DNA from: Escherichia coli
GTDB taxonomy: Bacteria > Pseudomonadota > Gammaproteobacteria > Enterobacterales > Enterobacteriaceae
Direction: 5' to 3' (one strand)
Assembly (NCBI RefSeq): GCF_002854065.1
Contig: NZ_CP024147.1
Length of the DNA: 64,000 nucleotides
This document shows positions 29,684-55,738 of the stretch, piece after piece; the stretch's first letter is position 1; every line of letters begins with the position of its first letter. Below the pieces are notes generated by a model, which was not told the origin of the DNA, did not search any database, and was given only the letters and a program-made list of their open reading frames with translations. Both the position numbers and the translations under genes were made by a program.

Positions 29684-29713
29684 AAAACTGGCCGTAACAA
29701 GCCAGTTTTTTCT
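29684..29713 (+). terminator. gor rho-independent terminator
   Basis: AAAACTGGC / GCCAGTTTT stem with 8-nt loop then T-run. Confidence 0.6.
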
Positions 29714-29919
29714 TTATAAGAATGATAGTTGACACTCTTGTTTATGTGTATTCTATATAAAATATTGATACCATAATTAAACAGATGAGAATAAAAAAGC
29801 ATCAATTACTTGTTTATATAGAGAACCAATTCTTAGATTTTTCGCATGATTTGAAATAGAAATTGATGATGTATTCGCGTCATTGAATTCCATTTTAAAA
29901 TCTGTTTCTCTAGGTTTAT

Positions 29920-31164
29920 TTAAATATTTTTTTGTATGGTGTCCGGAGATAAGGATAAACTCTCATGCCTAGATAATGGGCGTTCATCTTCTTGTGTATA
30001 TATAACTTTATAATCTTTTGGTAAGTCTTCAGCCAGGCGACCGGAGAATAAAGTTAGTTCGTCAGTAGCCATCGTAAATAACCAAGCTTCCTGATTTATA
30101 CTCTGGTTAACTCGTAAAATTCTACCCAGTACCTGCCTGAAATAGAGCTCAGTTTTAACAGCGCTTAGATGACAGCAAACCTGAAGTCGAGGGATGTCTG
30201 TACCCTCACTGATCATGCCAACACTGACAATCCACTCGGTAGTCGCATGTCGATAATGGTCAATTTTAGAAATGGCTCTTCTATCGTGATATGTCACAAT
30301 AGTTGTAGTTTGGCCAAACTCGTTTTCTAAAATACTTAGTAGTTCATATGCATGCTCGACTGATGAAGCAACAACCAGACCACCTGCGTCAGGGTTAAAT
30401 TTTCTAATTTCACGAAGTTTTTCACATCCAGATTTGATTACATACCTCATTGCATCAGGATACCAAATTATTGATTGATATGAAGTTACTGTCTCATTCA
30501 AAAAGTCTGCTATAGAACTATAATTTTTCATTGTTTCATCGGATGAGATAGCCAAATTGCTACTATTTACAAGGACAATTTTTGGCTTACGACAAACGTT
30601 ATCTGCAATAGCTTCTCTGAGACCGTATTCATAGTCACAGCTAACCACTCCATCCGAATCAGTGTAATTTGAAAACACTATTGGTGTATTGTCTGTTCGC
30701 CATGGAGTTCCTGTTAATGCCAATGTGTAACTGACACATTGTTGAACTTGAGACAGTATTTCCCCGCCCCAGACATTTGCATTTTCCAATGAATCACCAG
30801 AGCAATGATGTATTTCGTCGAAAACAGCCAACACACGATGACGCTTCAAAGAATCCCAGAAACGTTTATCGAAATACATCAGACTATGATAAGTATACAC
30901 CGCGCCAACCGCACCAAAGTCTCCATCAAAACTTCTTTCCAGAATACGGGAAAAATTACTTTTTATAGATGAGACTACCGCTGTTGAGGGGGCAAAGCAT
31001 ATAACCAGATCAACCATATCGAGCTCAAGCATTCTTTTGGTGACTTCGGCCGCCATTACAGTTTTTCCAGCACCAGGACTTGCAAGACATAGAAAGTGCT
31101 GTAATCCAGATTGATACTTTGTTAGCGCAGCGGCAACGCATTCTTTCTGCCAATCTCTCAACAT
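29920..31164 (-). CDS. compact SF2 (DEAD/DEAH-type) helicase, function unknown
   Basis: 414 aa, low GC; motif I SPGAGKT, motif II FDEIHH, motif III LTGTP, motif VI QVLGRILR; no extra nuclease domain. Confidence 0.7.
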   Translation of the reverse strand: MLRDWQKECVAAALTKYQSGLQHFLCLASPGAGKTVMAAEVTKRMLELDMVDLVICFAPSTAVVSSIKSNFSRILERSFDGDFGAVGAVYTYHSLMYFDKRFWDSLKRHRVLAVFDEIHHCSGDSLENANVWGGEILSQVQQCVSYTLALTGTPWRTDNTPIVFSNYTDSDGVVSCDYEYGLREAIADNVCRKPKIVLVNSSNLAISSDETMKNYSSIADFLNETVTSYQSIIWYPDAMRYVIKSGCEKLREIRKFNPDAGGLVVASSVEHAYELLSILENEFGQTTTIVTYHDRRAISKIDHYRHATTEWIVSVGMISEGTDIPRLQVCCHLSAVKTELYFRQVLGRILRVNQSINQEAWLFTMATDELTLFSGRLAEDLPKDYKVIYTQEDERPLSRHESLSLSPDTIQKNI

Positions 31165-31280
31165 ACTCGATGCTCATCACTATGTTGACTAGACTGGCCC
31201 CCTGAATCTCCAGACAACCAATATCACTTAAATAAGTGATAGTCTTAATACTAGTTTTTAGACTAGTCATTGGAGAACAG

Positions 31281-31646
31281 ATGATTGATGTCTTAGGGCC
31301 GGAGAAACGCAGACGGCGTACCACACAGGAAAAGATCGCAATTGTTCAGCAGAGCTTTGAACCGGGGATGACGGTCTCCCTCGTTGCCCGGCAACATGGT
31401 GTAGCAGCCAGCCAGTTATTTCTCTGGCGTAAGCAATACCAGGAAGGAAGTCTTACTGCTGTCGCCGCCGGAGAACAGGTTGTTCCTGCCTCTGAACTTG
31501 CTGCCGCCATGAAGCAGATTAAAGAACTCCAGCGCCTGCTCGGCAAGAAAACGATGGAAAATGAACTCCTCAAAGAAGCCGTTGAATATGGACGGGCAAA
31601 AAAGTGGATAGCGCACGCGCCCTTATTGCCCGGGGATGGGGAGTAA
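31281..31646 (+). CDS. insC: IS2 transposase OrfA (InsC)
   Basis: Product [30 protein letters not shown]... HTH protein. Confidence 0.85.
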
Positions 31647-32509
31647 GCTTAGTCAGCCGTTGTCTCCGGGTGTCGCGTGCGCAGTTGCACGTCATTCTCA
31701 GACGAACCGATGACTGGATGGATGGCCGCCGCAGTCGTCACACTGATGATACGGATGTGCTTCTCCGTATACACCATGTTATCGGAGAGCTGCCCACGTA
31801 TGGTTATCGTCGGGTATGGGCGCTGCTTCGCAGACAGGCAGAACTTGATGGTATGCCTGCGATCAATGCCAAACGTGTTTACCGGATCATGCGCCAGAAT
31901 GCGCTGTTGCTTGAGCGAAAACCTGCTGTACCGCCATCGAAACGGGCACATACAGGCAGAGTGGCCGTGAAAGAAAGCAATCAGCGATGGTGCTCTGACG
32001 GGTTCGAGTTCTGCTGTGATAACGGAGAGAGACTGCGTGTCACGTTCGCGCTGGACTGCTGTGATCGTGAGGCACTGCACTGGGCGGTCACTACCGGCGG
32101 CTTCAACAGTGAAACAGTACAGGACGTCATGCTGGGAGCGGTGGAACGCCGCTTCGGCAACGATCTTCCGTCGTCTCCAGTGGAGTGGCTGACGGATAAT
32201 GGTTCATGCTACCGGGCTAATGAAACACGCCAGTTCGCCCGGATGTTGGGACTTGAACCGAAGAACACGGCGGTGCGGAGTCCGGAGAGTAACGGAATAG
32301 CAGAGAGCTTCGTGAAAACGATAAAGCGTGACTACATCAGTATCATGCCCAAACCAGACGGGTTAACGGCAGCAAAGAACCTTGCAGAGGCGTTCGAGCA
32401 TTATAACGAATGGCATCCGCATAGTGCGCTGGGTTATCGCTCGCCACGGGAATATCTGCGGCAGCGGGCTTGTAATGGGTTAAGTGATAACAGATGTCTG
32501 GAAATATAG
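31604..32509 (+). CDS. insD: IS2 transposase OrfB (InsD), DDE integrase-like
   Basis: 301-aa ORF in the frame overlapping insC 3-prime end, as expected for IS3-family frameshift expression. Confidence 0.85.
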
Positions 32510-33063
32510 GGGCAAATCCATTGACCAAGTACTTTTGTTAAAGCGGTAACTCTGCCAAGCAATTCTGCCGACTGATTTTTTGCCTGCTGATAAAGGTCCA
32601 TAAAACATATCTTCTTGGCTGGAAAACGTTCCATCAAAGATTGATATTCTTCTAGCTCGCCCAGAATCACAGCAAGTTTGGCTTCATGAATAACTTTTTC
32701 TTTTTCTATATCGACCAAGAAACGATCAGCCCCCGGTGCCGACGGTTTCATTTTTTCGGGCATAGCGATAAGCCGCGAATTCTTTGGCAACGCTCTTGGT
32801 ATGAAAATAGTTGAATGAAAACTTTCCGTTTTCTTATACACACTTCTGGACTTGCCACCACTACTCTCAATTTTATAGATGAAGCCCAGGGACTCTAACC
32901 GAAGAAGTTGTCGGTGAATGAATTTTCTAGCCTCAGTAACTTCTGCGTAGTCATCTGTAATCTTCAGCAAAGCATCCCTGAGATGGATAGCGCAGAACTC
33001 ATTAAAACCCATCTCAATCAATAACTTATACATATATGGATGCAACTTTACTGCAGATTTCAT
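32434..33063 (-). CDS. hypothetical protein with putative winged-helix region; native C-terminus displaced by IS2 (last 27 codons are IS2-encoded)
   Basis: ORF reads into IS2 at 32520; removing IS2 and one TTGAC copy restores ...VLGQHSDEHRVC-stop, ending 4 nt downstream of the helicase ATG. Confidence 0.55.
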
Positions 33064-33161: not shown

Positions 33162-33473
33162 GTGGCTCACCCAAACCCGATACCCGAGAGGCTCAAAGCG
33201 GCCAGAACAAAAGCTGGGATCACTCAGAAGGAATTGGGGATCCGAATTGGCATGGAACCCAGCTCGGCGAGTGGTCGTATGAACCATTATGAGAAAGGGA
33301 GACACACTCCTGACATTGATACCCTCAAGCGTATGGCTGATGAACTTGGGGTACCAATTAACTATTTCTTTTGCGAGAACGACATAACTGCAGAATTAGC
33401 ATGTCTGATAGCTAAAATGACTGAGCAGCAGCAGATTGAATTGATTGCTATGCTAAAGAAAAATCAATCTTAG
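33162..33473 (+). CDS. XRE-family helix-turn-helix transcriptional regulator
   Basis: 103 aa; HTH LKAARTKAGITQKELGIRIGMEPSSASGRMNHYEKG typical of Cro/C1-type regulators. Confidence 0.7.
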   Translation: MAHPNPIPERLKAARTKAGITQKELGIRIGMEPSSASGRMNHYEKGRHTPDIDTLKRMADELGVPINYFFCENDITAELACLIAKMTEQQQIELIAMLKKNQS

Positions 33474-33861
33474 ATTTTTCACAGAACTCATACCTGAATA
33501 ATATCAGGGTTTCTTAGATATCCTTGACCTGCGACGTATACGCCTCCTCGAAGGGTATCCGCAATTTCTTATCTCATGTATCAGCTACCACCCAAACCGA
33601 ATCTTCATCAGTTCCGGACGTCATGTAATAAACCATAATTCTGGAAATCAAGGAAGCAAATCTAATTGTGTAAATGACCCCGTTGTTTCAGTAATTGAGT
33701 AACATGCCATAAACGGGATTAATAAAGACTTCATTTTAATTTCAACGCCCTTATCAGCCTGAAGTAAAATATGACTTGCAGATCACGTGAATACCTAAGC
33801 TGGAAGAGTATCTTTTACTATTGCAGTCCAACGTGAGAAAACAACAAGTCAACAAGGATTC

Positions 33862-36474
33862 ATGATGCTCAGTAGCGAGTTTTTGCGCTTTTTTCAAACC
33901 TTAAACACAACAGAAGTCCCCAGTAATGTCAGGAAAATAGCGAATCTTGTGTGGGATAACCTAGATGATATAACCCCATTGGGCACTTCGCAGGGTCAGC
34001 GAGTCAGGCGCATTGTCTCTCTGGCACAGTCTGCATGGGATGCCCTCAGTACAGAAGTACAGCCACTACCAGAGCAGACCGCTGAACGCGTCTCCACGTT
34101 TAGTCGGCTGAGAAAGATATCTGTTGGACCATTTAGAGGGTTTGCAAAGCAAGAAGAATTTGATCTGGATTCACGTCTAGTGCTGATTTACGGCCCCAAT
34201 GGTACTGGGAAGTCAAGTTTCTGCGAAGCGCTTGAATATACATTACTGGGCAATGTGGCTGAGGCCGAAAGCAAGCGTTTCCGGAATCAAAACGACTATT
34301 TTAAAAATGCACATGTCAATCGGTTTTCTGTTCCAGAGATAATTGGTGTCGGAGATCATGGGCAGGATGTGTCGATTGAGAATAACGAAGCACAGTATCG
34401 CTTTTGCTTTGTTGAAAAAAATCGTATCGACAACTTTTCAAGAATCGCGGCTCTGGTCCCAACAAGGCAGACTGAACTTATCTCAACACTATTCGGGCTA
34501 GATAGTTTTAATGATTTTGTGCGAAATTTTACATCAGATATTGATGCCAGATACATCGATCTAACAGGCGTAAAAGCAGGTCAGTTGGCAGAAAAGCGCA
34601 AGTCTCTTCTGGCTGCACAGCAGCAATTGGCGACAGGTCAGGCTGCCCTGGAAGGGTTGGCATCAGAGGAACAGACACTGGCTTCTGTTTATCGTGAAGG
34701 CCTGTCTTACCAGCAGATGCTAGCTGAGTTAAAAGGGGATGAACAAAATATCGGAACCATCCGACAGCTTGAAACAGAGTTACAAACGCCACTTCCGAAT
34801 CAGAGTAGCCTGACATCTGCTATTTTGAACGATATAAGTAGCGCTGTTGAAACGGCACTTATAGATCTGGAAAGCAAGCAGAAGCAACTGGCAGAGGCAA
34901 GTCAGCAGGTTTCATATAAAAATTTATTTGAAGCAGTTGTCCAGTTACAGGGTACCAGCCCGGAACAATGCCCTGCATGCCATACCCCTCTTCAGCAAAC
35001 CGCCAAAAACCCCTACAGCCATGCCTGTGATGAATTGCTAAAGCTTGAGTTTCTGTCGACATTACAGGGAGAAATAACTCAGCTGGAAAAATTAATTGGC
35101 CAGTTGATGTACAGTGTTTCACAAGTAATCGGCACATGCTGTCAGTTTTTGCCACATGACAATGCTCTTGAAGTATTCCGAAATGAAAATGGCATCACTT
35201 TATGGCGTAATCTGCGGCAGCAAACAGGAGATGGCATAACTCCCTGGGCTCAGCTTGAAAAACAGGTGTGGCATCTGGAGGGAGAAGATAAAAAAATAGA
35301 GGAAGCAACTAAATTGCGAGAATCCCGTCAGCGGGATCTTGCGAGAATGCGTGAATCTGATCGCCAGATAACGATTTTGCAGACAAGAAGAGATACGATA
35401 GAAAAAACCATCTCTGCGGCTCAGTTGTTGATTGGCAACTTTGATACTGAAAACAGGCAGCTAATTGAAGAAGTTGCTCACGAAGAAGACATTGTAAGGA
35501 AAAACAAAGCAATTTCAGAAGCGTATTCCCGGTTCGTTTTACAGCTGAACGCCTATAAAGAGGGATTACCTCAGAGACTTGTAGCGAATCTTGGGGATCA
35601 CATTGTCACTCTCTACAACGCATTTAACCGTAATGACCCCCCGGGAGAAAAGCTAGCAGGTATCAAACTACCTCTGCTGCAGAATCAGCGACTGGAAGTA
35701 GCGTTTCAGAATAATCCAACGCAACTATTCGATGCCCTGCATGTACTTAGTGAGGGGCATGTACGCTGTATAGGGCTGGCTATTTTGTTGGCAAAAAACA
35801 TTAATGAACAGTGTCCACTTTTGATATTTGATGACCCGGTCAATGCTATTGATGACGATCACAGAGAATCGATTCGGAGAACGTTGTTTGAAGATGCTTT
35901 CTTTGCTGAAAAACAAATCATTCTGGCCTGCCATGGAGAGGAATTCTTCAAAGACATCCAGAATTTATTGCCAGCGCCGGTTGCCGCACAGTCCAAGACT
36001 TTCAGCTTCTTACCGCGTCTTGACGAATTGCATATCCGCGTAGATTTTAACTGCGCTCCCAGGAACTATATTATTTCTGCACGAGGGCATTATGAGCGTA
36101 ATGAGATTCGGGAGGCGCTTGCAAAATGCAGACAGTCACTTGAATCGTTGATGAAGGGGAGAGTCTGGCGATATGTAAATAAATATGGTGATGGTAATCT
36201 TAGTCTCAAGCTAAGGTCAGCAACGGCACCTATTGAGTTACGTAACTTGTCGGATCAATTGAAGAAACAGATCAATAAAGCTGAGTTCCGTGACCAAAAT
36301 AAAAACGCCGTATTCACACCAATTGATGTGTTAACTGGGCTAAGTGGAGAATCACGAGAATGGCGCTATCTAAATAAAGGTACGCATGAGGAAGACGGCA
36401 GGGCTGAGTTTGATCGAGCAACAGTAGAAACCATGATTTCTGCCCTTGAGGCGCTCGATCAGGCTGTGAGTTAA
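33862..36474 (+). CDS. SMC/Rad50/RloC-like ABC ATPase with central CxxC hook and uncharacterised C-terminal domain
   Basis: 870 aa; Walker A LIYGPNGTGKSS, about 500 aa Q/E/L-rich coiled-coil with EQCPACH midway, signature-like LSEGHVRCIGLA, Walker B/D-loop LLIFDDPVNAIDDDH, H-loop ILACHGEEF, then about 170 aa of unknown function. Confidence 0.65.
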   Translation: MMLSSEFLRFFQTLNTTEVPSNVRKIANLVWDNLDDITPLGTSQGQRVRRIVSLAQSAWDALSTEVQPLPEQTAERVSTFSRLRKISVGPFRGFAKQEEFDLDSRLVLIYGPNGTGKSSFCEALEYTLLGNVAEAESKRFRNQNDYFKNAHVNRFSVPEIIGVGDHGQDVSIENNEAQYRFCFVEKNRIDNFSRIAALVPTRQTELISTLFGLDSFNDFVRNFTSDIDARYIDLTGVKAGQLAEKRKSLLAAQQQLATGQAALEGLASEEQTLASVYREGLSYQQMLAELKGDEQNIGTIRQLETELQTPLPNQSSLTSAILNDISSAVETALIDLESKQKQLAEASQQVSYKNLFEAVVQLQGTSPEQCPACHTPLQQTAKNPYSHACDELLKLEFLSTLQGEITQLEKLIGQLMYSVSQVIGTCCQFLPHDNALEVFRNENGITLWRNLRQQTGDGITPWAQLEKQVWHLEGEDKKIEEATKLRESRQRDLARMRESDRQITILQTRRDTIEKTISAAQLLIGNFDTENRQLIEEVAHEEDIVRKNKAISEAYSRFVLQLNAYKEGLPQRLVANLGDHIVTLYNAFNRNDPPGEKLAGIKLPLLQNQRLEVAFQNNPTQLFDALHVLSEGHVRCIGLAILLAKNINEQCPLLIFDDPVNAIDDDHRESIRRTLFEDAFFAEKQIILACHGEEFFKDIQNLLPAPVAAQSKTFSFLPRLDELHIRVDFNCAPRNYIISARGHYERNEIREALAKCRQSLESLMKGRVWRYVNKYGDGNLSLKLRSATAPIELRNLSDQLKKQINKAEFRDQNKNAVFTPIDVLTGLSGESREWRYLNKGTHEEDGRAEFDRATVETMISALEALDQAVS

Positions 36475-36607: not shown

Positions 36608-37336
36608 TTAATCACTGAATACCAACGAATCTAATACACCTTGTCCACTATGAACTCCTCCTTCAACTGACTCTGCTGATTTGCTACGGATCAAATACCC
36701 AGCAAAACTGTGATCAGCGCTAGATGCATTGTTACCTATCTGGACGGAGAACATTCCTAGTTCGCTGACCAGATCAGTAACCTGATATAACTCCCCTTTA
36801 CGGACAACCAGAGAAGGTGTAGCTCGCGGGACAGGATGTATCCGACGCATGAACGACCAGGATTGATATTGCAGCGGGTCAAGTCTTGCCAGTTTTAACT
36901 GGATATCAGAGCCAAACAGACAATGCCCACCCCCTTCGCCCTGGTTTTTGAGAACCCATGAATCAGAAGGAGACTCTTTTACAATGCTGATTGTATCAGG
37001 GCTAACAGGAAGCATTTCGCCCAACACCATTTTTATGATATCAACCTCTTCCGGCTTCAGTCCAAAAGCAATCAGTTCATCGCACCCCAAATGAGAGAGC
37101 AACATTTGTACTCGCTTACTTGTCGCAAGTTGCTGAGCGACTGTTGCATTCACCGCAACTCGGTGCTGCTCAATCAATACTCGCGTGGCCATTAGCGTCT
37201 GGCAACACTCCTTCTCATTGAGACTGGCGGCTTCATAATCTGAGTATTGATATCCGGCACGTAAGTAAACAGAAGTAGTATGGGTGTATGAACTTGTCAT
37301 TGTTTTGACATTTATCAAATATATTCGATTATGCAT
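36608..37336 (-). CDS. hypothetical cysteine-containing protein, divergent from arsR
   Basis: 242-aa ORF (alternative start at 37300); no motif recognised. Confidence 0.4.
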   Translation of the reverse strand: MHNRIYLINVKTMTSSYTHTTSVYLRAGYQYSDYEAASLNEKECCQTLMATRVLIEQHRVAVNATVAQQLATSKRVQMLLSHLGCDELIAFGLKPEEVDIIKMVLGEMLPVSPDTISIVKESPSDSWVLKNQGEGGGHCLFGSDIQLKLARLDPLQYQSWSFMRRIHPVPRATPSLVVRKGELYQVTDLVSELGMFSVQIGNNASSADHSFAGYLIRSKSAESVEGGVHSGQGVLDSLVFSD

Positions 37337-37393: not shown

Positions 37394-37747
37394 ATGATGT
37401 CGCTTACTTCCCTACAACTCTTTAAGAATCTGTCTGATGAAACACGTCTGGGTATTGTTCTCATACTCAGAACTATGGGGGAGTTGTGCGTATGTGATCT
37501 TTGCACTGCACTTGATCAATCACAGCCTAAGATCTCCCGGCATCTGGCTATGTTGCGAGAAAGTGGGATTTTGCTTGATAGTAAACACGGTAAATGGGTT
37601 CATTACCGGTTATCCCCACACATTCCTTCATGGGCTGCACAGATTATTGAGCAGGCCTGGTTAAGCCAACAGGACGATCTTCAGGCCATCGCCCGTAAAC
37701 TGGCTTCAGTCAACTGCACTAACAGCAGTAAGGCTATTTGTATTTAA
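37394..37747 (+). CDS. arsR: arsenite-responsive repressor ArsR
   Basis: HTH plus As(III)-binding ELCVCDLC motif. Confidence 0.9.
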   Translation: MMSLTSLQLFKNLSDETRLGIVLILRTMGELCVCDLCTALDQSQPKISRHLAMLRESGILLDSKHGKWVHYRLSPHIPSWAAQIIEQAWLSQQDDLQAIARKLASVNCTNSSKAICI

Positions 37748-37787
37748 AAATTTGCCTGAATATATATGATTTCCCACATATGAGGTA

Positions 37788-38156
37788 TTGAGAATGAAAA
37801 CGCTAGCGGTATTCGACCCGGCAATGTGTTGTAGCACCGGTGTCTGCGGTACTGATGTCGATCAGGCTCTGGTTGATTTTTCCGCGGATGTGCAATGGCT
37901 GAAACAACGAGGTGTTCAGGTAGATCGTTTCAATCTGGCACAGCAACCGATGAGCTTTGTCCAGAACGAGAAAGTTAAAGCATTTATTGAGGCTTCTGGT
38001 GCGGAAGGGCTGCCATTACTGTTACTGGATGGCGAAACAGTGATGGCCGGGCGTTATCCGAAACGGGCTGAACTTGCACGGTGGTTTGGAATTCCGCTGG
38101 AGAAAGTAGGATTAGCGCCTTCAGGCTGCTGCGGTGGTAATACTTCTTGTTGTTAA
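37788..38156 (+). CDS. arsD: arsenic metallochaperone/regulator ArsD
   Basis: N-terminal MCCSTGVCG (Cys12/13/18) and C-terminal CCGGNTSCC. Confidence 0.9.
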   Translation: MRMKTLAVFDPAMCCSTGVCGTDVDQALVDFSADVQWLKQRGVQVDRFNLAQQPMSFVQNEKVKAFIEASGAEGLPLLLLDGETVMAGRYPKRAELARWFGIPLEKVGLAPSGCCGGNTSCC

Positions 38157-38173
38157 GTATGTCAGGAGGACAT

Positions 38174-39925
38174 ATGAAATTCTTACAGAACATCCCCCCT
38201 TATCTGTTTTTTACTGGTAAAGGAGGCGTTGGTAAAACCTCTATTTCCTGCGCCACGGCGATCCGTCTGGCAGAACAGGGTAAACGAGTGCTGCTGGTCA
38301 GTACCGATCCGGCCTCAAACGTAGGCCAGGTCTTTGGCCAGGTTATTGGCAATACTATTCAGCCAATAGCCACTGTTCCTGGATTGTCGGCACTTGAGAT
38401 TGATCCTCAGGCCGCTGCGCAACAGTACCGGGCCAGAATCGTTGACCCTATTAAAGGTGTCCTGCCTGATGACGTCGTTAGCAGCATCAACGAACAACTG
38501 TCTGGTGCATGCACAACAGAGATTGCGGCTTTTGATGAGTTTACCGGATTACTGACAGACGCCTCTTTGCTGACCCAGTTTGACCATATCATCTTTGATA
38601 CCGCGCCAACCGGCCATACTATTCGCCTTCTCCAGTTGCCAGGCGCCTGGAGCAGCTTTATTGACAGCAATCCCGAGGGCGCATCCTGCCTCGGCCCGAT
38701 GGCGGGGCTGGAAAAACAGCGTGAACAGTATGCCCATGCCGTTGAAGCACTGTCCGACCCAGCGCGTACCCGCCTGGTTTTAGTTGCCAGACTGCAAAAA
38801 TCCACCCTGCAAGAAGTCGCCCGAACTCATTTAGAACTCGCCGCAATTGGCCTTAAAAATCAGTACTTGGTCATTAATGGCGTTCTGCCCAAAACTGAAG
38901 CGGCAAACGATACACTGGCTGCGGCTATATGGGACCGTGAACAGGAGGCGCTGGCCAATCTTCCTTCTGACCTTTCCGGTCTGCCAACTGACACGTTATT
39001 CCTCCAACCACTCAATATGGTCGGCGTGGCTGCATTAAGTGGGCTTCTCTCCTCTCAGCCTGAGGCAGCATCATCTTCTGAAGAATACATTCAGCAACGA
39101 CCTGAAATTCCGTCGCTCTCAGCGTTAGTCGATGATATTGCCCGTAACGAACATGGTCTGATAATGCTAATGGGCAAAGGCGGTGTGGGGAAAACCACGA
39201 TGGCGGCAGCCATTGCCGTCAGACTGGCCGAAATGGGATTTGATGTCCATCTGACCACCTCAGATCCAGCAGCACACCTCAGCACAACCCTGAACGGTAG
39301 CCTTAACAATCTGCAGGTCAGTAGAATCGATCCTCACGAGGAAACAGAACGCTATCGTCAGCATGTTCTTGATACCAAGGGTGGAGAACTGGATGAAGCG
39401 GGTAAACGCCTGCTGGAAGAAGATTTACGCTCTCCTTGTACCGAAGAGATTGCGGTCTTCCAGGCCTTTTCACGGGTGATTCGTGAAGCGGGTAAGCGCT
39501 TCGTGGTCATGGATACGGCACCCACCGGGCATACCCTACTGCTGCTGGATGCCACCGGGGCGTATCACCGCGAAATTGCTAAGAAAATGGGCGATAAAGG
39601 CCATTTCACCACGCCAATGATGCAGCTTCAGGACCCGGAGCGAACCAAAGTGTTACTGGTCACGCTGCCGGAAACCACGCCCGTGCTTGAGGCGGCAAAT
39701 TTGCAGGCCGACCTTGAACGCGCAGGGATTCATCCCTGGGGCTGGATTATCAATAACAGCCTTTCCATTGCGGATACCCGTTCGCCGCTGCTTCGTCTGC
39801 GGGCGCAACAGGAACTTCCGCAGATCGAGAGTGTTAAACTCCAGCATGCCAGTCGCGTAGCTCTTGTTCCTGTACTGGCGTCAGAACCGACCGGCATCGA
39901 CAAACTCAAACAACTCGCTGGTTAA
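38174..39925 (+). CDS. arsA: arsenite pump ATPase ArsA
   Basis: Start [23 protein letters not shown]; duplicated P-loops (GKGGVGKTS / GKGGVGKTT) and DTAPTGH motifs. Confidence 0.9.
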
Positions 39926-41262: not shown

Positions 41263-41274
41263 TGAGATTCTGAT

Positions 41275-45570: not shown

Positions 45571-45590
45571 CAGTGATAGCTCCTCTGGAA

Positions 45591-45953: not shown

Positions 45954-46028
45954 GGATTGTTTACCTCAGTGTTTAGTCATTTGGCTTTACACTGAGGTAA
46001 ACGAAGGTGGTGGGAAAAAGATGCGCGA

Positions 46029-46586: not shown

Positions 46587-47293
46587 ATTTTGCTCTGATT
46601 AACCCGTCGGGAAAGTTCTTCTGCAGACTCTTTTCGTTCACTGTAGCGATCGACAAGATAGGCAGAATTTGCCCGGGTCAACAATGTAAACTTCATCAAT
46701 TCTTCCATCACATCCACGATGCGGTCGTAATATGGTGACGGTTTCATACGTCCATCGTCATCAAACTCCTGCCAGGCTTTTGCTACCGAGGACTGGTTCG
46801 GAATAGTGATCATTCTCATCCAACGACCAAGCACGCGCATCTGGTTGACTGTGTTGAATGACTGGGAACCTCCACACACTTGCATAACAGCCAGAGTTTT
46901 TCCCTGAGAAGGACGAACAGCACCTTCAGATAATGGTATCCAGTCAATTTGTGCCTTCATAATACCAGTCATCGCTCCGTGTCGTTCCGGAGAGCACCAC
47001 ACCATTCCTTCAGACCAGCGGACCAGTTCACGCAACTCCATAACTTTTGGATGTGACTCCGGTGCATCATCAGGAAGTGGAAGGCCAGATGGATTAAAAA
47101 TGCGGACTTCTGCGCCCATCGCAGTTAACAACCGACCAGCTTCCTCTGTCGCCAGTCGACTGTATGAGCGCTCACGAACTGAGCCATAAAGCATTAGTAT
47201 ACGAGGGGGGTGAGATATTGTCGGTATCCCCATTTTTTGCTCAGTTATTGCAGCATCAAATAAATCAGGAACTATATTATTTAGCTTATTCAT
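46583..47293 (-). CDS. arsH: ArsH, NADPH-dependent FMN reductase family
   Basis: 236 aa with [12 protein letters not shown] flavodoxin-like motif. Confidence 0.85.
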
Positions 47294-47391
47294 TTTTTAT
47301 TTTCCCTATAGATTCGGGATCTTAGTAGGATGGATTCAGACGGTTCGATGCAGCTTTCGTCAATCATGACAGTTATGAGTTTTTCGGTTAC

Positions 47392-47715
47392 TTATCCATT
47401 TTTGCCAGCGGGTTCCGTAACATCTGTTTTACTGTTTACACAGCACTCTTCACGTAAGAATTCGATGATAGCTTCCAGTATTTCGTATTGAGAGACGCAC
47501 ATGAGCGTTCGACTCTCCCGGTTTTGTGTGACGAGTCCTACTGATACTAAGGCTGAAATATGATGACTTAACGTTGATGAGGGAATGCCAAGCTGCTTTT
47601 GCAATTCACCTACAGGCAAACCTTGTTCTCCAGCTTTTACAAGATGTTTGAATATGAACAAACGGGTCGGGTGACCCAGCTCTTTTAGTGCTTTAGCTAC
47701 TTCTTCCAATTGCAT
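47392..47715 (-). CDS. arsR: ArsR/SmtB-family repressor (second ars regulator) with C-terminal vicinal cysteines
   Basis: 107 aa, HTH LPVGELQKQLGIPSSTLSHHISAL, C-terminal EECCVN. Confidence 0.75.
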   Translation of the reverse strand: MQLEEVAKALKELGHPTRLFIFKHLVKAGEQGLPVGELQKQLGIPSSTLSHHISALVSVGLVTQNRESRTLMCVSQYEILEAIIEFLREECCVNSKTDVTEPAGKNG

Positions 47716-47820
47716 GTGACAACCCTCTGTCTAATGATATTTCGATAATACCAGAAATATCTTGACCAGAATTATATTTCGATTATTCTAGAAATGTAGA
47801 TTTTGTCAAGAGGGTTTAGT

Positions 47821-48954
47821 ATGAATAGTTGGATTTCTATGCTGCAAGATGCCGCAGAGATGTTTTTGTTTTTGGCCGTCGAGCTATCTTTGCTGTTTAT
47901 TGTCATCAGTGCCGGTGTGAGCCTGATAAGGCAAAAGGTCCCGGACCATAAAATCCAGCAATTGTTGGGGGCGAAAAAAGGAAAAGGCTACCTGCTGGCC
48001 TCGTTGTTGGGAGCCGTTACCCCTTTCTGTAGTTGCTCAACAATTCCAATGCTACGAGGGTTGTTGTCGGCGAAAGCAGGGTTTGGTCCGACACTCACTT
48101 TTTTGTTTGTTTCACCGTTGCTTAATCCCATTATCGTGGGGTTAATGTGGGTTACCTTTGGCTGGAAAGTAACTTTGTTGTACGCGATCATCGCTGCCGG
48201 TGTCTCAGTCCTTGCCAGTATCGTATTGGATTTACTAGGATTTGAACGTCATATTGTTGATCACAAAAACTCAGCATCAAGTGGTTGCGCCACCAAATGT
48301 GATGATTCCGAAGCTTCGGTAAAAACGTCGGCGGGTTCCAGTTGTTGCAGCACTAGCTCGACTCAATTGCCTGTAAAAACGAGTTGCTGTACTTCATCAG
48401 CGAACCCCATAATTAACTTAAGGACGGTAAAGAACGAGCAGAACGTATCAACGTGTTGTTCATCAATATCATCTGAACAACCAGCTGTTAGCTGTTGCAG
48501 CAGCGAGAATCTGGGCAATGTGAATCTCACACCGAATACCACCTCTGGCCCAATAAAGTTAGCTATGAAAGATGCCTTACAGCAGTTTAAGGATGTTCTG
48601 CCTTATCTTTTGTTAGGTGTATTAATAGGTTCATTTATTTATGGCTTTATCCCTTCAGAGTGGATTGCAGCTCATGCCGGAGCAGATAATCCCTTAGCCA
48701 TACCGCTGAGTGCAGTTGTTGGTATTCCGTTGTATATACGCGCAGAGGCAGTGATACCACTTGCATCAGTGCTGATGACTAAAGGAATGGGCCTGGGGGC
48801 ATTAATGGCCTTGATAATCGGTAGTGCTGGAGCGAGTTTGACAGAAGTAATACTGCTTAAATCAATGTTCAGAATGCCTATGATAGTCGCTTTTCTGACA
48901 GTTATCTTAGGTATGGCAATTCTAATGGGTTATCTGACTCAATTCTTGTTTTAA
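47821..48954 (+). CDS. arsP: ArsP-type permease with extended Cys/Ser-rich loop
   Basis: TPFCSCS motif in TM region; ATG at 47821 after GAGGG; large S/T/C loop with four CC doublets. Confidence 0.75.
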   Translation: MNSWISMLQDAAEMFLFLAVELSLLFIVISAGVSLIRQKVPDHKIQQLLGAKKGKGYLLASLLGAVTPFCSCSTIPMLRGLLSAKAGFGPTLTFLFVSPLLNPIIVGLMWVTFGWKVTLLYAIIAAGVSVLASIVLDLLGFERHIVDHKNSASSGCATKCDDSEASVKTSAGSSCCSTSSTQLPVKTSCCTSSANPIINLRTVKNEQNVSTCCSSISSEQPAVSCCSSENLGNVNLTPNTTSGPIKLAMKDALQQFKDVLPYLLLGVLIGSFIYGFIPSEWIAAHAGADNPLAIPLSAVVGIPLYIRAEAVIPLASVLMTKGMGLGALMALIIGSAGASLTEVILLKSMFRMPMIVAFLTVILGMAILMGYLTQFLF

Positions 48955-49412: not shown

Positions 49413-50756
49413 ATGATCTTCTTTAGAGTTGAGCTAAAAGGAGTCGAGGCGATGGCCAGGATAATCCAATCAGCCGGTATCAATCATGGTGCAACAGCAA
49501 AAATAATTTCCGATTCAATAGATTATAACTCCGGCATACATATTGCAGGATTACCAACGCTATATAATAAAGATGGTCATTTTGTAGAAATTGTAAATTT
49601 GTGGTTTTTGGATTTGATAACCGTTAAGAGGCTAGAGGATATTAGTTCTTCAGCCAGAGCAATTCTTCGTTACTGGTCTTTTCTAGAACGAGAAGAGCTT
49701 ACATGGAGTCATTTTCCTCCAGTGAAACGCCTGAAACCCACATACCTTTTCCGTAGCAACGACTTGTTAAAAGCAGTTAAAGAGGGAAGACTGGCGTACT
49801 CAACTGCAAATACTTATATGGGACATTTAGTTCAGTTTTACATCTGGGCAATTGAAAATCATCATCTTGTCATATCAAGTGAAAAAGAAGCTCCCTTTAC
49901 TATTGAGTTTGTTAAGCGTAACAATAGAGGCCTGCTGGCACATCTTCGCCCAATGATCAGTGTGCAAACGAGCGATTTACGTATCCGCGTTCCTAAAGTT
50001 ACAAACGCCGAGATCCAGTCATTAACTCCTTTAACTCAAGATCATCTTTCCTTACTATCATTCAACTTAAGCCATCAATCTGTTGAATTTATGTTGATGA
50101 CTTTACTGGCCTGTAAAAGTGGTTTGAGACTTCGTGAAGCATGTAGCCTCACAATTGAGGCTTTATCTCAAGCTTTGCCCGCCAACGAATTAAAGCTACG
50201 CTATATGATCAACATTTGGCCCCACAATGGTGTTGATACAAAATTTAGAAAAAAAAGAAATATTGAAGTCCCCTGGCCTCTACTAAACGCATTACAACGC
50301 TACTCGCTGTCAGAAAGAAGGCAAAAAAGACTTTCAAAATTACAGACAAAAATAGCCATTCCCTCAATTTCGGAAAAGATTAAAGAATCCCACAATAAAG
50401 CATCTCGATTCGAACCTCTTTTTATCAGTCAGCAAGGAAATTGTATCCAGCCCGAAGTTCTAAATGCAAGGTGGGTTGCATTTAGAAATGAACTTGCCAA
50501 AAAAGAACCTAGTTTTCGTTATCGTTTCCACGACCTCCGATGTACCTATGCCACATACAGACTTCAAGACCTGCTGGATAGCAATCTCTCAGAAGGGGAT
50601 GCCCTAGACTGTCTTATGGGATGGATGGGACACAATAACGAAAGAACCACATTTAAATATATCCGCTACTTGAAGAAAAACGAGATGCTCAAGTGTGCTT
50701 TTTCGCTATTAGACTCAGTGATGGATAATGCAATAAGGGATAATTTAAATGACTGA
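49413..50756 (+). CDS. tyrosine site-specific recombinase (first of trio)
   Basis: R...HxxR...H...Y signature: LRLREACSL, FHDLRCTYATY, GHNNERTTFKYIRY. Confidence 0.8.
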   Translation: MIFFRVELKGVEAMARIIQSAGINHGATAKIISDSIDYNSGIHIAGLPTLYNKDGHFVEIVNLWFLDLITVKRLEDISSSARAILRYWSFLEREELTWSHFPPVKRLKPTYLFRSNDLLKAVKEGRLAYSTANTYMGHLVQFYIWAIENHHLVISSEKEAPFTIEFVKRNNRGLLAHLRPMISVQTSDLRIRVPKVTNAEIQSLTPLTQDHLSLLSFNLSHQSVEFMLMTLLACKSGLRLREACSLTIEALSQALPANELKLRYMINIWPHNGVDTKFRKKRNIEVPWPLLNALQRYSLSERRQKRLSKLQTKIAIPSISEKIKESHNKASRFEPLFISQQGNCIQPEVLNARWVAFRNELAKKEPSFRYRFHDLRCTYATYRLQDLLDSNLSEGDALDCLMGWMGHNNERTTFKYIRYLKKNEMLKCAFSLLDSVMDNAIRDNLND

Positions 50757-52472
50757 TAAAATCCCTCAATCCAGACTCGGCCATGAAATACTACTGGAGG
50801 TTACAGATGGTGGAAATCGTTCTAAAACACTAGATTTCAATCGCTACAACTATTTATACTTCCCCACTCGAAATAAAATAAATAGAGGTCACAGTACATT
50901 TCAAGATAGATCAGTCAGCGCTGAATCGTTATATGTAGCATTCAGAGATTCAGACTACTCATCAGCCACAAAATATTATCTTTTTGAATACCTCAGGCAA
51001 TATATTGTATTTTGCGACAAGTGTCACCATCCCATTTTCACTAATGAATCCGTGCAGGCCTACTGTGATCTCCTTATTTATAAAAATAAATCAGGAATTA
51101 TTTTGAATAGTACTTATACTGCTATCATTAGTGCCACAAAACGCTTATTCGTTATGCTTGACTTACCTGGGCGGTGGTTTGATGAATTACCAACCTTAGG
51201 AAAGTCACAGGCACAGCCCTATAAGGCCTATAGTGACAATGATTTAAAAAAACTACTCCCTTTACTGAGGATATTTTTCAAGCAAATTTCCAATAAGTTC
51301 CTACAAGACCCCGCTTTGTATCTTTCTCAAGGTAAGAATGAAACTGATATGTTTTTCAGGTGGAATGGTAAAATATATGCAGTATATGGTAGTGTCGGGC
51401 AACTAATGGCTTCTGCTGTATATCTACTGTCTTACTATACATGGGCAAACACAAATACATTACTTTCTCTTGAAAGACCAGACATATGTGAAAGTAATGT
51501 AAATGGAGAATGGTACCAAATGCCAGCATTTAAGCGCCGGGCATTTAGAGTCATCACTATTCAGATCGGTGCCCACGACCAGATCAACATTCCAAAGTAT
51601 TCAATGGAATTTTTCAACCAACTTCTAAAAGTCTCAAAAGCTATTTCAGTTGAAAGTAACTTACTTTTTCAGTCCGGTTCATGTAATCGCATCACCCCAT
51701 TATCAGCGGTCCACTTACAAAATTTCAACAGTTTTCTCAAAAAGAACTTTAGATTAACTGATGATAAAGGACTTAGCTATCACCTGTAATATCGAGATTT
51801 CGTGCTACTGGTAGTCAATTTACGCAATTGCATTACTCTCATACACATAGTGCATCGCTATTAGGAAATTCACCGAAAACAACTCGCAAGCATTATTCAG
51901 AAGGGAATGAATACCAAAATCAGTCAATGCTCCAGGACTCTGTCTCTGTTTTTGCAGACAAGGCGGTAAATGGCGGGAATATAGAGACGTCTAAAAAAAG
52001 AATAAAAAGTGAACTTAATGTTGAGATTTTAACATATGAAAGTATGCTTAAAATGAAATCTCCACCAATGCGACAGGCCCACGGCAGTTACTGTAAAGAT
52101 CCATTCGGGGAGCAGGCTAAAAAGTTCTTGCTACGCGCCCAACGTCACGATTTGCTTTCTACAGAAAAATTTGCTTGCTCAGATCTACTGATGTGTTTTT
52201 CCTGTCCTCATCAAGTTGTGATAGCTGAACCTACTGATATTTGGTGTTTGCTGAGTTTTAAAGAATGCATAGAAGAGAGTATTTACAAGCATGTCAATCA
52301 CACTCATTTCCATAATAACTATGACTCTGTGTTGTCGGCAATTGAAAAAATTTTAATGAGTATTGATAAAAAAATACTTTCAAGTGCAACTCAAAAATTT
52401 CTCGATGAGGGTCCTCACCCTTTATGGAGAGACCAGTCATTTCTATATCCATATAGCAATAAGGATACATGA
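50749..52472 (+). pseudogene. tyrosine recombinase (second of trio) interrupted by a frameshift within the catalytic region
   Basis: ORF 50749-51789 ends ...DDKGLSYHL-stop; the overlapping frame continues ...LSPVISRFRATGSQFTQLHYSHTHSASLLGNSPKTTRKHY, carrying the box II and Tyr motifs; frames overlap only in 51777-51789. Confidence 0.6.
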
Positions 52473-54271
52473 TGAAAAAAGATACATTAAAAATTTATTT
52501 ACCCGATAGTGTAAATGAGAATCAGTGTCCTGAGGCTTGTGATGTAATATTTCTTCATAGAAGGCAATGCTGGGGGGAGTTAAATGACATTCCTATTTGC
52601 ATTGATAATAAGGGGAATGTAGTCGCCAGGTTTGGCGATATCATATGGAATTTGGAGCCTCTGGTCGTAACTAAAAATGCAACACATAGGCAAATTAATT
52701 TCTCAGTACTAAAGTCCCATCCATCTCTCTTATATGAGATGAAACTCATTTGCTACGGTTGGCTGTTCACAAAGAACATGCAATACAGTTTACCGACTAA
52801 AATATCAACAATCATCGGAAGAGCATCGGGTCTGAAGATGAGTTATAAATATCTGATGTCAAATTCCCTGGATAGTATTTCTCGTATATGCGAACCTGAA
52901 ATATGGGGGAAATATCTGAACTTTCTTGAAGAACAAAAAAAGAGCGCAGGGACTTTAGTTCATATACTGTGTTCCCTTCAGCAAGCCTATCTACTATTTC
53001 CATGGATGGGACTTGATTACCGAGAAATTAAATTCAGCCCTACGAATTTAAGTAAAAAAATATGTCGAGATGAAGCAATTGAGAGAGCACAAACCCTGGC
53101 TATACCGGAAGATATCGCAGATAAATTATTACACTTTGCAGTAAACCTCGTAGATACCGCATGGCAATACAGGGAGCAACTGGGTGAAACAGAACGACGC
53201 ATTCAGGAAAACTATAAGTTAGGAGAACAGGCGGTTCAAAACAAAATAATATCGGGCCAATGGAAGTGGCTAACGACTGAAGAAGGTACCCCTGCTTTTA
53301 GACACCATTTTGCCAAAGAAGCGGCCCGCTTCTTCCCCTTTAACCCAGCTGAAATCATATCTGAACTTCTCACTGACTACCCTGATCGCCCGACAGATGC
53401 TAATGGTTCCTGGTGGCATTTACAGCGAGGCAATCTTACATCAGCCTGTTTTGTTTGCTGTGCTGCATTCTCAGGTATGCGGGAAAGTGAACTTTATGAG
53501 CTAACATCTGAGAGTTATTACAATGCTGTTTACAGCGGCAGAACCTTTCATTTTCTAAAAGGCAAGACTCATAAAATGGGGGAAAGGCATACTGAGTGGG
53601 TTGTTGCCCCTATCGTTCAAAAAGCAGTCGAAGTTATGAGTGCCTTAACGAAACACTTAAGAGAGTATTTGCTACAAGATGCTTCAACTGCACGGGATAA
53701 AGAACTCGCGCAATGCCTTTGGCTTTCCCAGGGGCAGCGCTCAACTCAACCCAAAAGAATATCATGCTGGGCCCTACGCCTCACAAATTTCTCCAAATAC
53801 TCTGGTGCAATCGTTTCTGAAAAAGATTACGCAGAATGCCTTCGTTCCAACCCGAATAGTCAGGAAAAGATTAAAAATCATGTTCACATTGGAAAACACT
53901 GGGCGCTTTCCCCTCATCAGTTCAGAAGGACTCTTGCCTTTTTTACAATAAAAAATAGATTGGGAAATGCGATAGCCATCAAACAGCAATTCAAGCACCT
54001 CTATCTCCAGATGTCTGAGTGGTATTGCGAAGGTGGTATCCCTTCGCGCCTGGATGAAGTCGAGGCCGACAAAGAATTGCAGAAAATGATAGATACAGTA
54101 AGCAATGAGCAAATTACCCAAAAATACTGGTCATGGTTTCATGGTACCGAAACACTTTCAGGGAGTCATGGCAAAGATATTCTGAAGCTCAGGGATGATT
54201 TGCCAATCATGTTTAGAAGTTGGGAGAAATTATACAAATTGGTGAAAGATAAAAGGATCACGCTACACTGA
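52469..54271 (+). CDS. tyrosine site-specific recombinase (third of trio)
   Basis: 600 aa; FSGMRESELYEL, SPHQFRRTLAFF (HxxR), C-terminal KHLYLQMSEWY; 4-nt overlap with preceding gene. Confidence 0.75.
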   Translation: MMKKDTLKIYLPDSVNENQCPEACDVIFLHRRQCWGELNDIPICIDNKGNVVARFGDIIWNLEPLVVTKNATHRQINFSVLKSHPSLLYEMKLICYGWLFTKNMQYSLPTKISTIIGRASGLKMSYKYLMSNSLDSISRICEPEIWGKYLNFLEEQKKSAGTLVHILCSLQQAYLLFPWMGLDYREIKFSPTNLSKKICRDEAIERAQTLAIPEDIADKLLHFAVNLVDTAWQYREQLGETERRIQENYKLGEQAVQNKIISGQWKWLTTEEGTPAFRHHFAKEAARFFPFNPAEIISELLTDYPDRPTDANGSWWHLQRGNLTSACFVCCAAFSGMRESELYELTSESYYNAVYSGRTFHFLKGKTHKMGERHTEWVVAPIVQKAVEVMSALTKHLREYLLQDASTARDKELAQCLWLSQGQRSTQPKRISCWALRLTNFSKYSGAIVSEKDYAECLRSNPNSQEKIKNHVHIGKHWALSPHQFRRTLAFFTIKNRLGNAIAIKQQFKHLYLQMSEWYCEGGIPSRLDEVEADKELQKMIDTVSNEQITQKYWSWFHGTETLSGSHGKDILKLRDDLPIMFRSWEKLYKLVKDKRITLH

Positions 54272-54310
54272 ACTCTGCATAGTTATTGTAAGAACGGATA
54301 TGATTGTGAG

Positions 54311-54565
54311 ATGGAAGGGGTCATTAACCCAGCATTTTGTATAGATTGTAGTACAAATGGTAGTATTATTGATGGCGAACAAGCTGCCTGGTGGAAAAGC
54401 AAACATAATGCACTGATCTTATATTTGAGTGAAAACGCAGAGATATCTACTGCTGTTTATATTCACTGCCTAACACAAATTCATGCAGCTGAGAAGGTAA
54501 TGTCTGATTTTTCAATAGAATACATTCCATTTCAGCCCGAAATAGAGATCAGAACAGATGAGTAA
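54311..54565 (+). CDS. small hypothetical protein downstream of recombinase trio
   Basis: 84-aa ORF, 8-nt overlap with next ORF. Confidence 0.4.
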   Translation: MEGVINPAFCIDCSTNGSIIDGEQAAWWKSKHNALILYLSENAEISTAVYIHCLTQIHAAEKVMSDFSIEYIPFQPEIEIRTDE

Positions 54566-55013
54566 AAAAGACAACACACTGCTACTGCTTGAGGCAGCTC
54601 TGGACCGTATTTTACGCGGTGAATCACAGAAAATAGCACCATCCCGAAAACTCAGTGTTCGGGCGGTTGAGGTAGAATCAGGACTCGGTAATGGTAGTGC
54701 ATATTACCACACTAAAATTATCGAAAAAATCAAACAAATAAAAAACTCTTCCATAACGACAGGAAGTTTAAATCATCAACATCGAAAATGGAAACAAAAA
54801 GCACTTAAGGCTGAAAAATTAAAAAACAAATTCCGGGATGAAAACATTGCATTAAAATTATTAAATTCACAAATTGCCGCAGATCAGTATAGACAAATGA
54901 GCACTTTAAGAGATGCCTTACAACGTATATTGGAACTCGAAAAAACAATTGAAGAATTGAACATTGAACTGGTTGAGACCAGACGTAAAAACATTACTCT
55001 ATTTAAGCAATAA
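54558..55013 (+). CDS. small coiled-coil hypothetical protein, possible recombination accessory factor
   Basis: 151-aa ORF, basic and coiled-coil rich, translationally coupled to the preceding ORF. Confidence 0.45.
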   Translation: MSKKDNTLLLLEAALDRILRGESQKIAPSRKLSVRAVEVESGLGNGSAYYHTKIIEKIKQIKNSSITTGSLNHQHRKWKQKALKAEKLKNKFRDENIALKLLNSQIAADQYRQMSTLRDALQRILELEKTIEELNIELVETRRKNITLFKQ

Positions 55014-55738
55014 CTCAGTTATAACACAATACGATTTACAATAGATAGTTTCGCGATGATAAGCATTACTGCGTACCGTGAATATCCTACGTTATACAGG
55101 GTTACGGGTAAAAACTATCGGGTCTGCGGTGAGACATGTCATTTTCATCGGTACATCCCCCGTTAAAGGGGAAATTATCTTTCCGGTCTTCATTTTCTTA
55201 ATAAAGTCCAATTTTTGCTCAGTGTCATCCTGGTATCTCTTTCATTTCTGATTATCCCACACAGAGGATTCAGCCAGAAAAGTACATTTTTCAGTTTCTA
55301 TCCCCTCACTCCGGCTCCTCCCCTTTCAACACTGATTTCGGGAAAACAAGCATGCGCCTAAAAAACAATCAAAACAGTCCGTATAAGTTACTTAGGTTGT
55401 CTGCTACTACAATCCCCTACCTTCTCAGTCAGTTGTTTATGGACTGACAGGAAGTAAAAAAGCCTATTAAAAAGAGCAAAAATAAGCAGCTAAACAAACA
55501 GGAAGCCTCTCAATCAAATGATAGTATTCCGAAATCAGCAGTTCAGCATGTAATAGGTACACGAGGGAGTTATGGTCTCTAATGAGTCGAGTTCACCAAG
55601 CACAAGAAGGATGGAAATTGCCGGACACCAAACTCTGGAAAAGTCCCATCCTGCCCAGAAGCCTTCCCCCACAAGGCTTTCCAGTTTTTCTACAGTTAAA
55701 TCGTGTATGGGTACTGCGTGACCATGCGTTAAATGTTA

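Follow-up and report, generated by a model that had tools for sequence, protein, structure and literature searches.

A stretch of 64,000 nucleotides from the Escherichia coli contig NZ_CP024147.1 (assembly GCF_002854065.1), subsequently designated the window, carries an island of about 26 kb between gor, which encodes glutathione reductase, and dinQ. In E. coli K-12 the gap between these two genes amounts to 54 bp, and the alignment of the K-12 chromosome to the window breaks at position 29638 and restarts at 55717. For 5,420 of the 5,422 complete E. coli genomes matching the right flank, the match begins only at 55717, and therefore the 26 kb represent an insertion. This insertion is rare in E. 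coli: its core region, comprising the recombination genes, is present in 2 of 5,426 complete genomes, and all others possess a clean empty site. The G+C content of the inserted DNA is 45%, as compared to 51% in the flanks. A preliminary description of the window, which was made from the letters alone, had noted an island of this size between the normally close genes gor and dinQ as well as the presence of IS2, low-GC helicase/ATPase genes and two ars clusters, and all of these features were recovered within the island. As detailed below, the island is very probably an SE (strand-biased circularizing integrative element), i.e. a non-conjugative element moved by tyrosine recombinases, which resides in gor and carries arsenic resistance genes.

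Attachment sites and recombination genes

The target gene, the attachment sites and the recombination genes are arranged as follows:

28292-29647, plus strand: gor (glutathione reductase), the target gene; its final 16 nt (29632-29647) come from the element
29626-29631, plus strand: GTTCGT, the central 6 bp of attB, kept beside motif C in attL
29632-29652, plus strand: left terminus, motif C (TACCATGAGAGGTTAGTGTAG); matches motif C of SE-EasCA1043 at 18/20 and that of SE-PmiBC1123 at 16/20 positions
49413-50756, plus strand: intA, tyrosine recombinase of ordinary size; Pfam Phage_integrase (E 5e-7), PHROG integrase (E 5e-17)
50749-52472, plus strand: tfp (tyrosine-recombinase-fold protein), here a pseudogene with a 1-nt deletion at 51778
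52469-54565, plus strand: intB, large tyrosine recombinase, here truncated by a G>T exchange at 54269 that turns Gly601 into a stop codon
54558-55013, plus strand: srap, small accessory protein with a coiled-coil C-terminus; srap ortholog WP_032288336.1
55694-55713, plus strand: motif C' at the right terminus (AGTTAAATCGTGTATGGGTA), imperfectly repeating motif C in inverted orientation
55714-55719, plus strand: CTGCGT, the 6-bp spacer ("footprint") arriving with the element, followed by the original gor end GACCATGCGTTAA
55786-55869, minus strand: dinQ, which is the nearest chromosomal gene on the right-hand side of the element

To place the junctions, the gor-dinQ interval was aligned with island-free E. 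coli. The empty site attB reads GAAGA/GTTCGT/GACCATGCGTTAA, while attL in the window reads ...GTTCGT/C and attR reads C'/CTGCGT/GACCATGCGTTAA. From this comparison it follows that the insertion, which lies in the last codons of gor, consists of an element of 26,082 bp (29632-55713) plus the 6-bp spacer CTGCGT (55714-55719), as stated by the SE model: the central 6 bp of attB remain beside motif C, and motif C' is flanked by a spacer of 6 bp that derives from the donor site. The left junction (...GAAGAGTTCGT/TACCATGAGAGGTTAGTGTAG) may be compared with attL of two published SEs that reside in the end of gor, i.e. ...GAGTTGTG/TACCATGACACGTTAGTGTA (Idola et al. 2023, PMC10214605, Additional file 6). 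The right end is ...CGTGTATGGGTA at 55713. The two termini form imperfect inverted repeats, in which, read inward, TACCATGAGAGG..TGTAGAAAAAC pairs with TACCCATACACG..TGTAGAAAAAC; the perfect TGTAGAAAAAC occurs at both ends. No other C-like or C'-like motif is present in the 64-kb window. As a consequence of the insertion, Gor terminates with ...VTMRG instead of the usual ...VTMR, the extra glycine being provided by motif C. The preliminary description had considered the ends unresolved and had seen no obvious direct repeats. The ends can now be assigned to 29632 and 55713, and an imperfect direct repeat across the two junctions does exist (GTTCGTTACCATGA / CTGCGTGACCATGC, 10 of 14 positions equal), because motif C mimics the end of gor.

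The four genes of the recombination module are found at 99.9% DNA identity in a Salmonella contig, in which they are intact, overlap each other and encode proteins of 447, 574, 697 and 151 aa. Comparison with this copy revealed that the open reading frames (ORFs) 50749-51789 (346 aa) and 51828-52472 (214 aa) are parts of one tfp gene, the intact product of which has 574 aa. Likewise, the ORFs 52469-54271 (600 aa) and 54311-54565 (84 aa) belong to a single intB gene with an intact product of 697 aa, and the 600-aa ORF has a 100%-identical homolog of that length. The stop codon in intB strips the protein of its conserved Cys-rich tail. As the same broken tfp and intB alleles were found in many E. 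coli contigs, they represent true lineage mutations rather than assembly errors. The preliminary description had listed three recombinase genes with overlaps of 8 and 4 nt, followed by two small coupled ORFs. The overlaps are real and the three genes do encode recombinase-fold proteins, but the ORF at 54311-54565 is the detached tail of intB and therefore only 54558-55013 is a separate small gene. This gene, srap, keeps its position and its 8-nt overlap with intB in all relatives examined.

Among the three recombinase-fold proteins, only IntA is matched by the Pfam Phage_integrase profile. IntB has no Pfam match and a profile search of PDB chains yielded nothing relevant for it, so that fold comparison was needed to recognise the protein: its model adopts the recombinase fold, and alignment identified the invariant R, K, HxxR, H and Y residues. 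IntA and IntB carry the signature of catalytic-type tyrosine recombinases (RHRY motif), IntB being unusually large. Neither NCBIfam nor PHROGs provided a useful match for Tfp, IntB or Srap. The predicted structure of Tfp resembles Cre/Tre, XerA, IntI and lambda Int (Foldseek, E-values down to 5e-5, probability 1.0), and Tfp additionally exhibits a weak match to a SAM-like core-binding domain. When the catalytic positions were mapped by eye, both catalytic histidines were apparently replaced, and the active site of Tfp thus appears to be degenerate. Of note, the C-termini of both IntB (C606, C612, C623, C626; alignment of residues 599-680) and Tfp (C449, C477, C483, C486; alignment of residues 446-560) are conserved and rich in Cys/His. 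Such tails are absent from ordinary tyrosine recombinases, and the models of Tfp and IntB have low confidence in these parts.

Family assignment and competing explanations

The module comprises, in this order, genes for a catalytic recombinase, an apparently degenerate recombinase-fold protein, a large catalytic recombinase and a small protein. This corresponds to the order intA-tfp-intB-srap of SEs (Idola et al. 2023, PMC10214605), all four core genes being recognisable even though two of them are split in the window. In GInt elements, the order is catalytic, catalytic, non-catalytic, small (Bardaji et al. 2017, PMC5385486). Tfp and Srap fall within the published ortholog groups: WP_050438664.1, which is the C-terminal fragment of Tfp, and WP_032288336.1 (Srap) are listed as a tfp-srap block on NZ_CP024147.1 (PMC10214605, Additional file 3), and neither was found among those ginC/ginD entries of PMC10214605 that the comparison covered. 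A published survey had thus already registered the element as a tfp-srap block, but did not include it in its set of elements whose termini are defined. Tfp shares 38% identity over 95% of its length with WP_121636909.1, the Tfp of SE-PagHa2018B (E 5e-119). When SE-Pda04Ya311 on plasmid pAQU1 was used as the SE reference for BLASTP, IntA (25% identity, E 3e-13), Tfp (E 6e-12) and IntB (E 4e-16) each matched their positional counterpart only, without any cross matches. Relaxase and type IV secretion genes are absent from the annotation of the 26 kb, and the only DDE transposase in the element belongs to the inserted IS2.

SEs were described in 2022-2023, have been reported in 0.3% of Escherichia replicons, and few have been studied experimentally. 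Two of them, SE-EasCA1043 of Enterobacter asburiae and SE-PmiBC1123 of Proteus mirabilis, are likewise inserted into the final codons of gor (PMC10214605, Additional files 6 and 8). As in the window, their four-gene cores are co-directional with gor and motif C restores the gor stop codon. This likeness refers to target, motif C and the four-gene core with its direction, and it does not extend to the cargo, which follows srap in these two SEs, whereas here nearly all of it is located between motif C and intA. The prototypes, i.e. SE-6283 and SE-6945 of Vibrio alfacsensis and SE-Pda04Ya311 of pAQU1, share the order intA-tfp-intB-srap, the imperfect inverted repeats and the 6-bp spacer rule with the element in the window; they also lack transfer genes and are carried on MOBH conjugative plasmids. 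In contrast, they come from marine Vibrionaceae and have other targets, while the element studied here resides in Enterobacteriaceae, carries arsenic cargo, has its core away from motif C, and its tfp and intB are broken. The identity of its core proteins to those of the pAQU1 SE is only 21-28%.

RIT (recombinase-in-trio) elements also possess three adjacent recombinase genes of the same orientation between inverted repeats, but these encode three ordinary recombinases, each of which is seen by standard integrase profiles, and a fourth small gene is not known from them. RIT elements were set apart by this description, since in the window only IntA matches Phage_integrase and a conserved fourth gene, srap, is present. 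Tn554 of Staphylococcus, a further system of this kind, is not known to have a tfp counterpart and occurs in Firmicutes.

The preliminary description had proposed a GInt-like element; a GInt would be moved by a ginABCD operon that includes three integrases. The general outline of this proposal holds, as the island is site-specific and encodes three recombinase-fold proteins together with a small protein. GInts indeed resemble SEs in being site-specific and in requiring all three recombinase-fold proteins and the small helper, and some of them leave no empty site (PMC5385486). In agreement with this proposal, the genes overlap, the small gene encodes a coiled-coil protein and the island has inserted at the 3' end of a gene that survives the insertion, all of which has been described for GInts (PMC5385486). 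The imperfect direct repeat of 10/14 positions across the junctions also conforms to a GInt trait (10-17 nt), a trait that does not discriminate between the two families. However, the family assignment does not hold. GinABCD of E. coli Sakai (ECs_3509-3512, which include a listed ginC-ginD block) produced a best BLASTP E-value of 0.15, the proteins are listed under tfp/srap, and the apparently degenerate member comes second in the operon, not third. Moreover, GInts comprise other protein families and have their operon at the 5' end, with the cargo directly after ginD and a short AT-rich 3' end (PMC5385486). Here, the operon sits at the end toward which it is transcribed, the cargo lies upstream of its first gene, and the inverted repeats that form the termini match those published for SEs. 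Membership in the GInt family is therefore very improbable.

Two further explanations concern the unity of the island. It could comprise two adjoining elements, i.e. an older arsenic/helicase island and a cargo-free SE of 6.3 kb (~49.3-55.7 kb) with a left end of its own upstream of intA. Canonical SEs have motif C about 0.1-2.5 kb from intA, a cargo-free SE of 6.35 kb is known, and the two halves differ in history when compared to plasmid pPSV (75-91% identity in the helicase, VspR-like and helix-turn-helix (HTH) genes versus 40-50% in the core). Nevertheless, we give this explanation little credence: there is no C-like or C'-like motif upstream of intA or inside the element, nor within 7 kb upstream in four relatives, and no direct repeat of the gor end is found upstream of intA. 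A plasmid-borne copy runs from the same C through the cargo to arsP, the Buttiauxella relative keeps the layout C-helicase...intA...srap with other cargo, and the complete relative on pK820-1 has intA 7.9 kb from motif C. That the region is ancestral, or a remnant of a prophage or of an integrative and conjugative element with an integrase at one end rather than a discrete transposable unit, is hardly credible. The PGAP annotation does call only one gene a "site-specific integrase", and the island has been degraded by IS2, deletions and pseudogene formation. Yet the empty site in all but 2 of the complete E. coli genomes contradicts an ancestral gene content, as does the G+C content of 45% versus 51%; the annotation of the element contains no genes for phage functions, relaxases or type IV secretion, and identical ends are found in different genera and on a plasmid. 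We thus retain the assignment to the SE family.

Relatives, plasmid carriage and proposed movement

The non-coding ends of relatives (~65% identity) could not be aligned by blastn and were compared by motif searches. The same junction base of motif C was found in gor of E. coli, Salmonella and Buttiauxella as well as in trhU of the 302-kb IncHI2-type plasmid CP172812.1. The hexamer beside motif C is GTTTGT in Salmonella gor and ATTCGT in Buttiauxella gor, the latter element having one mismatch in C; its right end was not found within the locus examined. In CP172812.1, the junction is located in the 3' end of trhU next to the hexamer TTGTGT, the same C being followed by cargo onward to arsP. 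The corresponding empty trhU site is visible in pAPEC-O1-R. A complete relative of 22,165 bp, whose IntB is 65% identical, occupies the trhU-trhN interval of pK820-1, an IncHI2A plasmid, and here C' is followed by GTTTGT, the hexamer that flanks motif C in the gor gene of Salmonella. The reverse holds for chromosomal relatives: next to their C' stands TTGTGT or TTGCGT, and these hexamers flank C at the two plasmid sites. These reciprocal hexamers fit the published fingerprint/footprint rule and suggest shuttling of the elements between gor and IncHI2 plasmids.

With respect to the plasmid site, two SEs with mutually 65% identical IntB proteins are inserted at one point in the 3' end of trhU in IncHI2 plasmids (L010 5844; L052 5060, 27224; L028 7240). 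Insertion at this point shortens TrhU by ~10 residues. The trhU site, ACTG TTGTGT TCGC, resembles the gor site, and the 3' end of trhU may represent a regular secondary landing site.

By analogy with published experiments on other SEs, movement may be envisaged as follows. IntA, Tfp, IntB and Srap would recombine attL with attR on one strand, yielding a circular copy without emptying the donor site, and the circle would then integrate into a gor-like target. Insertion would add the element plus 6 bp, whereby the central 6 bp of attB stay beside C and the spacer of the previous site is placed beside C', and motif C would re-create the gor end. From cell to cell, the element would spread by inserting itself into conjugative IncHI2 plasmids, at the 3' end of trhU. 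For CP172812.1, the model predicts that the right junction would read ...GTGTATGGGTA + 6 nt + TCGCTACGTTCC.

Several points weigh against the assignment to the SEs and the model of movement. The right junction of the CP172812.1 copy was not recovered, and the 84-aa IntB fragment is evidently not encoded there. The notions of circularization, of strand bias and of a donor site that is not emptied all stem from papers on other SEs. The register of the spacer could be shifted by about one base at a junction, since target and element can share the base beside C (t/T at trhU; C in pK820-1) and because ACCATG is present in both target and element at gor. The Tfp clade keeps R264, R352 and Y383 invariant at recombinase-like positions, so that Tfp need not be non-catalytic. 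Furthermore, the E. coli and Salmonella copies share the footprint CTGCGT, which is unexpected if either gor copy had directly seeded the other. Either an unsampled donor site accounts for the shared hexamer or variation of the spacer is more constrained than the model would suggest. CTGCGT is also found beside C' in a distant metagenomic relative (L026), and beside C at no sampled donor site.

A feature that is unusual for an SE concerns the position of the core operon. The core genes of SEs have been described as lying at the motif C end (PMC10214605), a description that is not mechanistic in that paper: intA starts 200 bp from C in pAQU1, and the gap is 1.7-2.5 kb in SE-EasCA1043 and SE-PmiBC1123. 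In the window, by contrast, 19.8 kb separate motif C from the start of intA, and the distance between the end of srap and C' is 0.7 kb. The operon is transcribed toward the nearby right end, almost all cargo (29.7-49.0 kb) is located upstream of intA and only 700 bp follow srap. Judged by the relatives, the distance of the core from C is a trait of the clade. In Buttiauxella, the order is C-helicase(-)-VspR-like(-)-HTH(+)-AIPR-intA-tfp-intB-srap with the core 4.8 kb from C, and in pK820-1 the distance between C and intA is 7.9 kb. In four other relatives, the 7 kb upstream of intA are devoid of motif C, and C' is located 0.5-1.1 kb past srap.

A clue to a possible origin of this arrangement is provided by pPSV, an IncHI1B plasmid with the order C-113 bp-intA-tfp-intB-srap-helicase(-)-VspR-like(-)-HTH(+). 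The order in the window therefore corresponds to the gene circle of pPSV after circular permutation, such that the termini come to lie between srap and helicase. The first ~48 bp after C in the window resemble the region following C in pPSV; beyond this point the window switches to a hairpin that in pPSV sits between srap and helicase. Since the identity to pPSV is 75-91% for the helicase, VspR-like and HTH genes and 40-50% for the core, a chimeric origin is plausible, in which the left arm of a canonical SE devoid of core genes was combined with the core of a second SE, both targeting gor. The helicase module is found in inverted orientation directly upstream of intA in pK820-1 and in a Pseudescherichia-like contig, and the trio of helicase, VspR-like and HTH genes appears to accompany the core in several lineages. 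A bolder proposal would be that in the gor/trhU clade of SEs the operon need not adjoin C, the same gene circle being opened at different points, and that the trio is a fifth functional module rather than mere cargo. We regard this as speculative and rather unlikely; if true, the trio could unwind, replicate or regulate the single-strand circle.

Cargo, decay and implications

The remaining genes of the island are located between motif C and intA:

29920-31164, minus strand: ResIII/DEAD-box helicase of 414 aa (462 aa in relatives); the frame is shifted by a T7/T8 run at 29927
31190-32520, plus strand: IS2 with the 5-bp target duplication TTGAC, in the 3' end of the VspR-like gene
32434-33063, minus strand: VspR_N/VspR_C-domain protein, 189 aa in relatives; C-terminus changed by IS2
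33162-33473, plus strand: XRE/C-protein-like helix-turn-helix regulator (PADLOC "control protein", E 5e-26)
33862-36474, plus strand: SMC/AAA ATPase resembling LmuB, candidate defence gene
36608-37336, minus strand: truncated eukaryotic-type glutathione synthetase (478 aa in the Salmonella variant), at which a deletion of 7.8 kb ends
37394-41700, plus strand: arsR-arsD-arsA-arsB-arsC cluster
41735-43739: GNAT acetyltransferase (minus strand), TauE/SafE exporter (plus strand) and winged-helix regulator (plus strand)
43813-47715, minus strand: second arsenic cluster with arsA, arsD, a sigma-70 family factor, arsH and arsR
47803-48954, plus strand: ArsP-type permease

The 414-aa form of the helicase is also present in one Salmonella chromosome and in the IncHI2 plasmid copy. 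Candidate anti-phage cargo comprises the C-protein-like regulator with the LmuB-like SMC ATPase (33162-36474) and the VspR-domain protein with the helicase, which is PbeA-like (29920-33063). Equivalent places in relatives are occupied by genes for AIPR, a Bub-like ubiquitin system, SIR2, TrlF or type I restriction. Salmonella variants carry 7.8 kb of extra DNA (L011 13408-21188) at the point where the window has its deletion (37263-37272). This DNA adds further arsenic-related genes and encodes the full-length glutathione synthetase, an ArsC of the low-molecular-weight phosphatase type, a phosphatase and a 1008-aa molybdopterin oxidoreductase with Fe-S partners.

As IS2 has inserted, tfp is frameshifted and intB is truncated, the E. 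coli copy is a decaying element that is most likely immobile unless helped in trans. In E. coli strain 100416, the same element is disrupted in another way, namely by IS3 and IS1. In E. coli GCA_031650735.1 (L012 17350-18460), the island runs from gor to arsRDABC and continues straight into chromosomal slp, dctR and chuS. Apparently, recombination between arsC of the island and chromosomal arsC deleted the second ars cluster, the recombination module and dinQ in this strain. When the literature was searched for a named arsenic island at gor, only a report on phylogroup D ST69 E. coli with chromosomal arsRDABC in the region was found.

To the right of dinQ (55720-56853), the chromosomal ars operon is cut down to arsC (56404-56853), and counterparts of K-12 arsR and of most of arsB are absent there. 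The window contains a single Agr antisense RNA (AgrB, 56144-56228), while agrA and agrB are both present in K-12. Within 56788-57980, an IS1 copy overlaps the end of arsC, and next to it lies a dctR-like regulator gene with an N-terminal truncation; because of this arrangement the yhiS-slp segment of K-12 and strain 100416 is missing in the window. Compared to NZ_CP182139.1 (E. coli CUWW06), the window is nearly identical and exhibits ~10 differences, including single-base homopolymer indels at 29927, 47293 and 56198 and six substitutions.

Taken together, the island at gor would represent a fully delimited enterobacterial SE with arsenic resistance, and the 99.9%-identical element is shared by E. 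coli and Salmonella. The case also calls for caution in annotation, as two of the three recombinase-fold genes are not seen by Pfam/NCBIfam and are "hypothetical" in PGAP. The natural 6-bp spacers, which obey the fingerprint/footprint rule, lend comparative support to that model, and the element, which lacks transfer genes of its own, could use IncHI2 conjugative plasmids as its vehicle.

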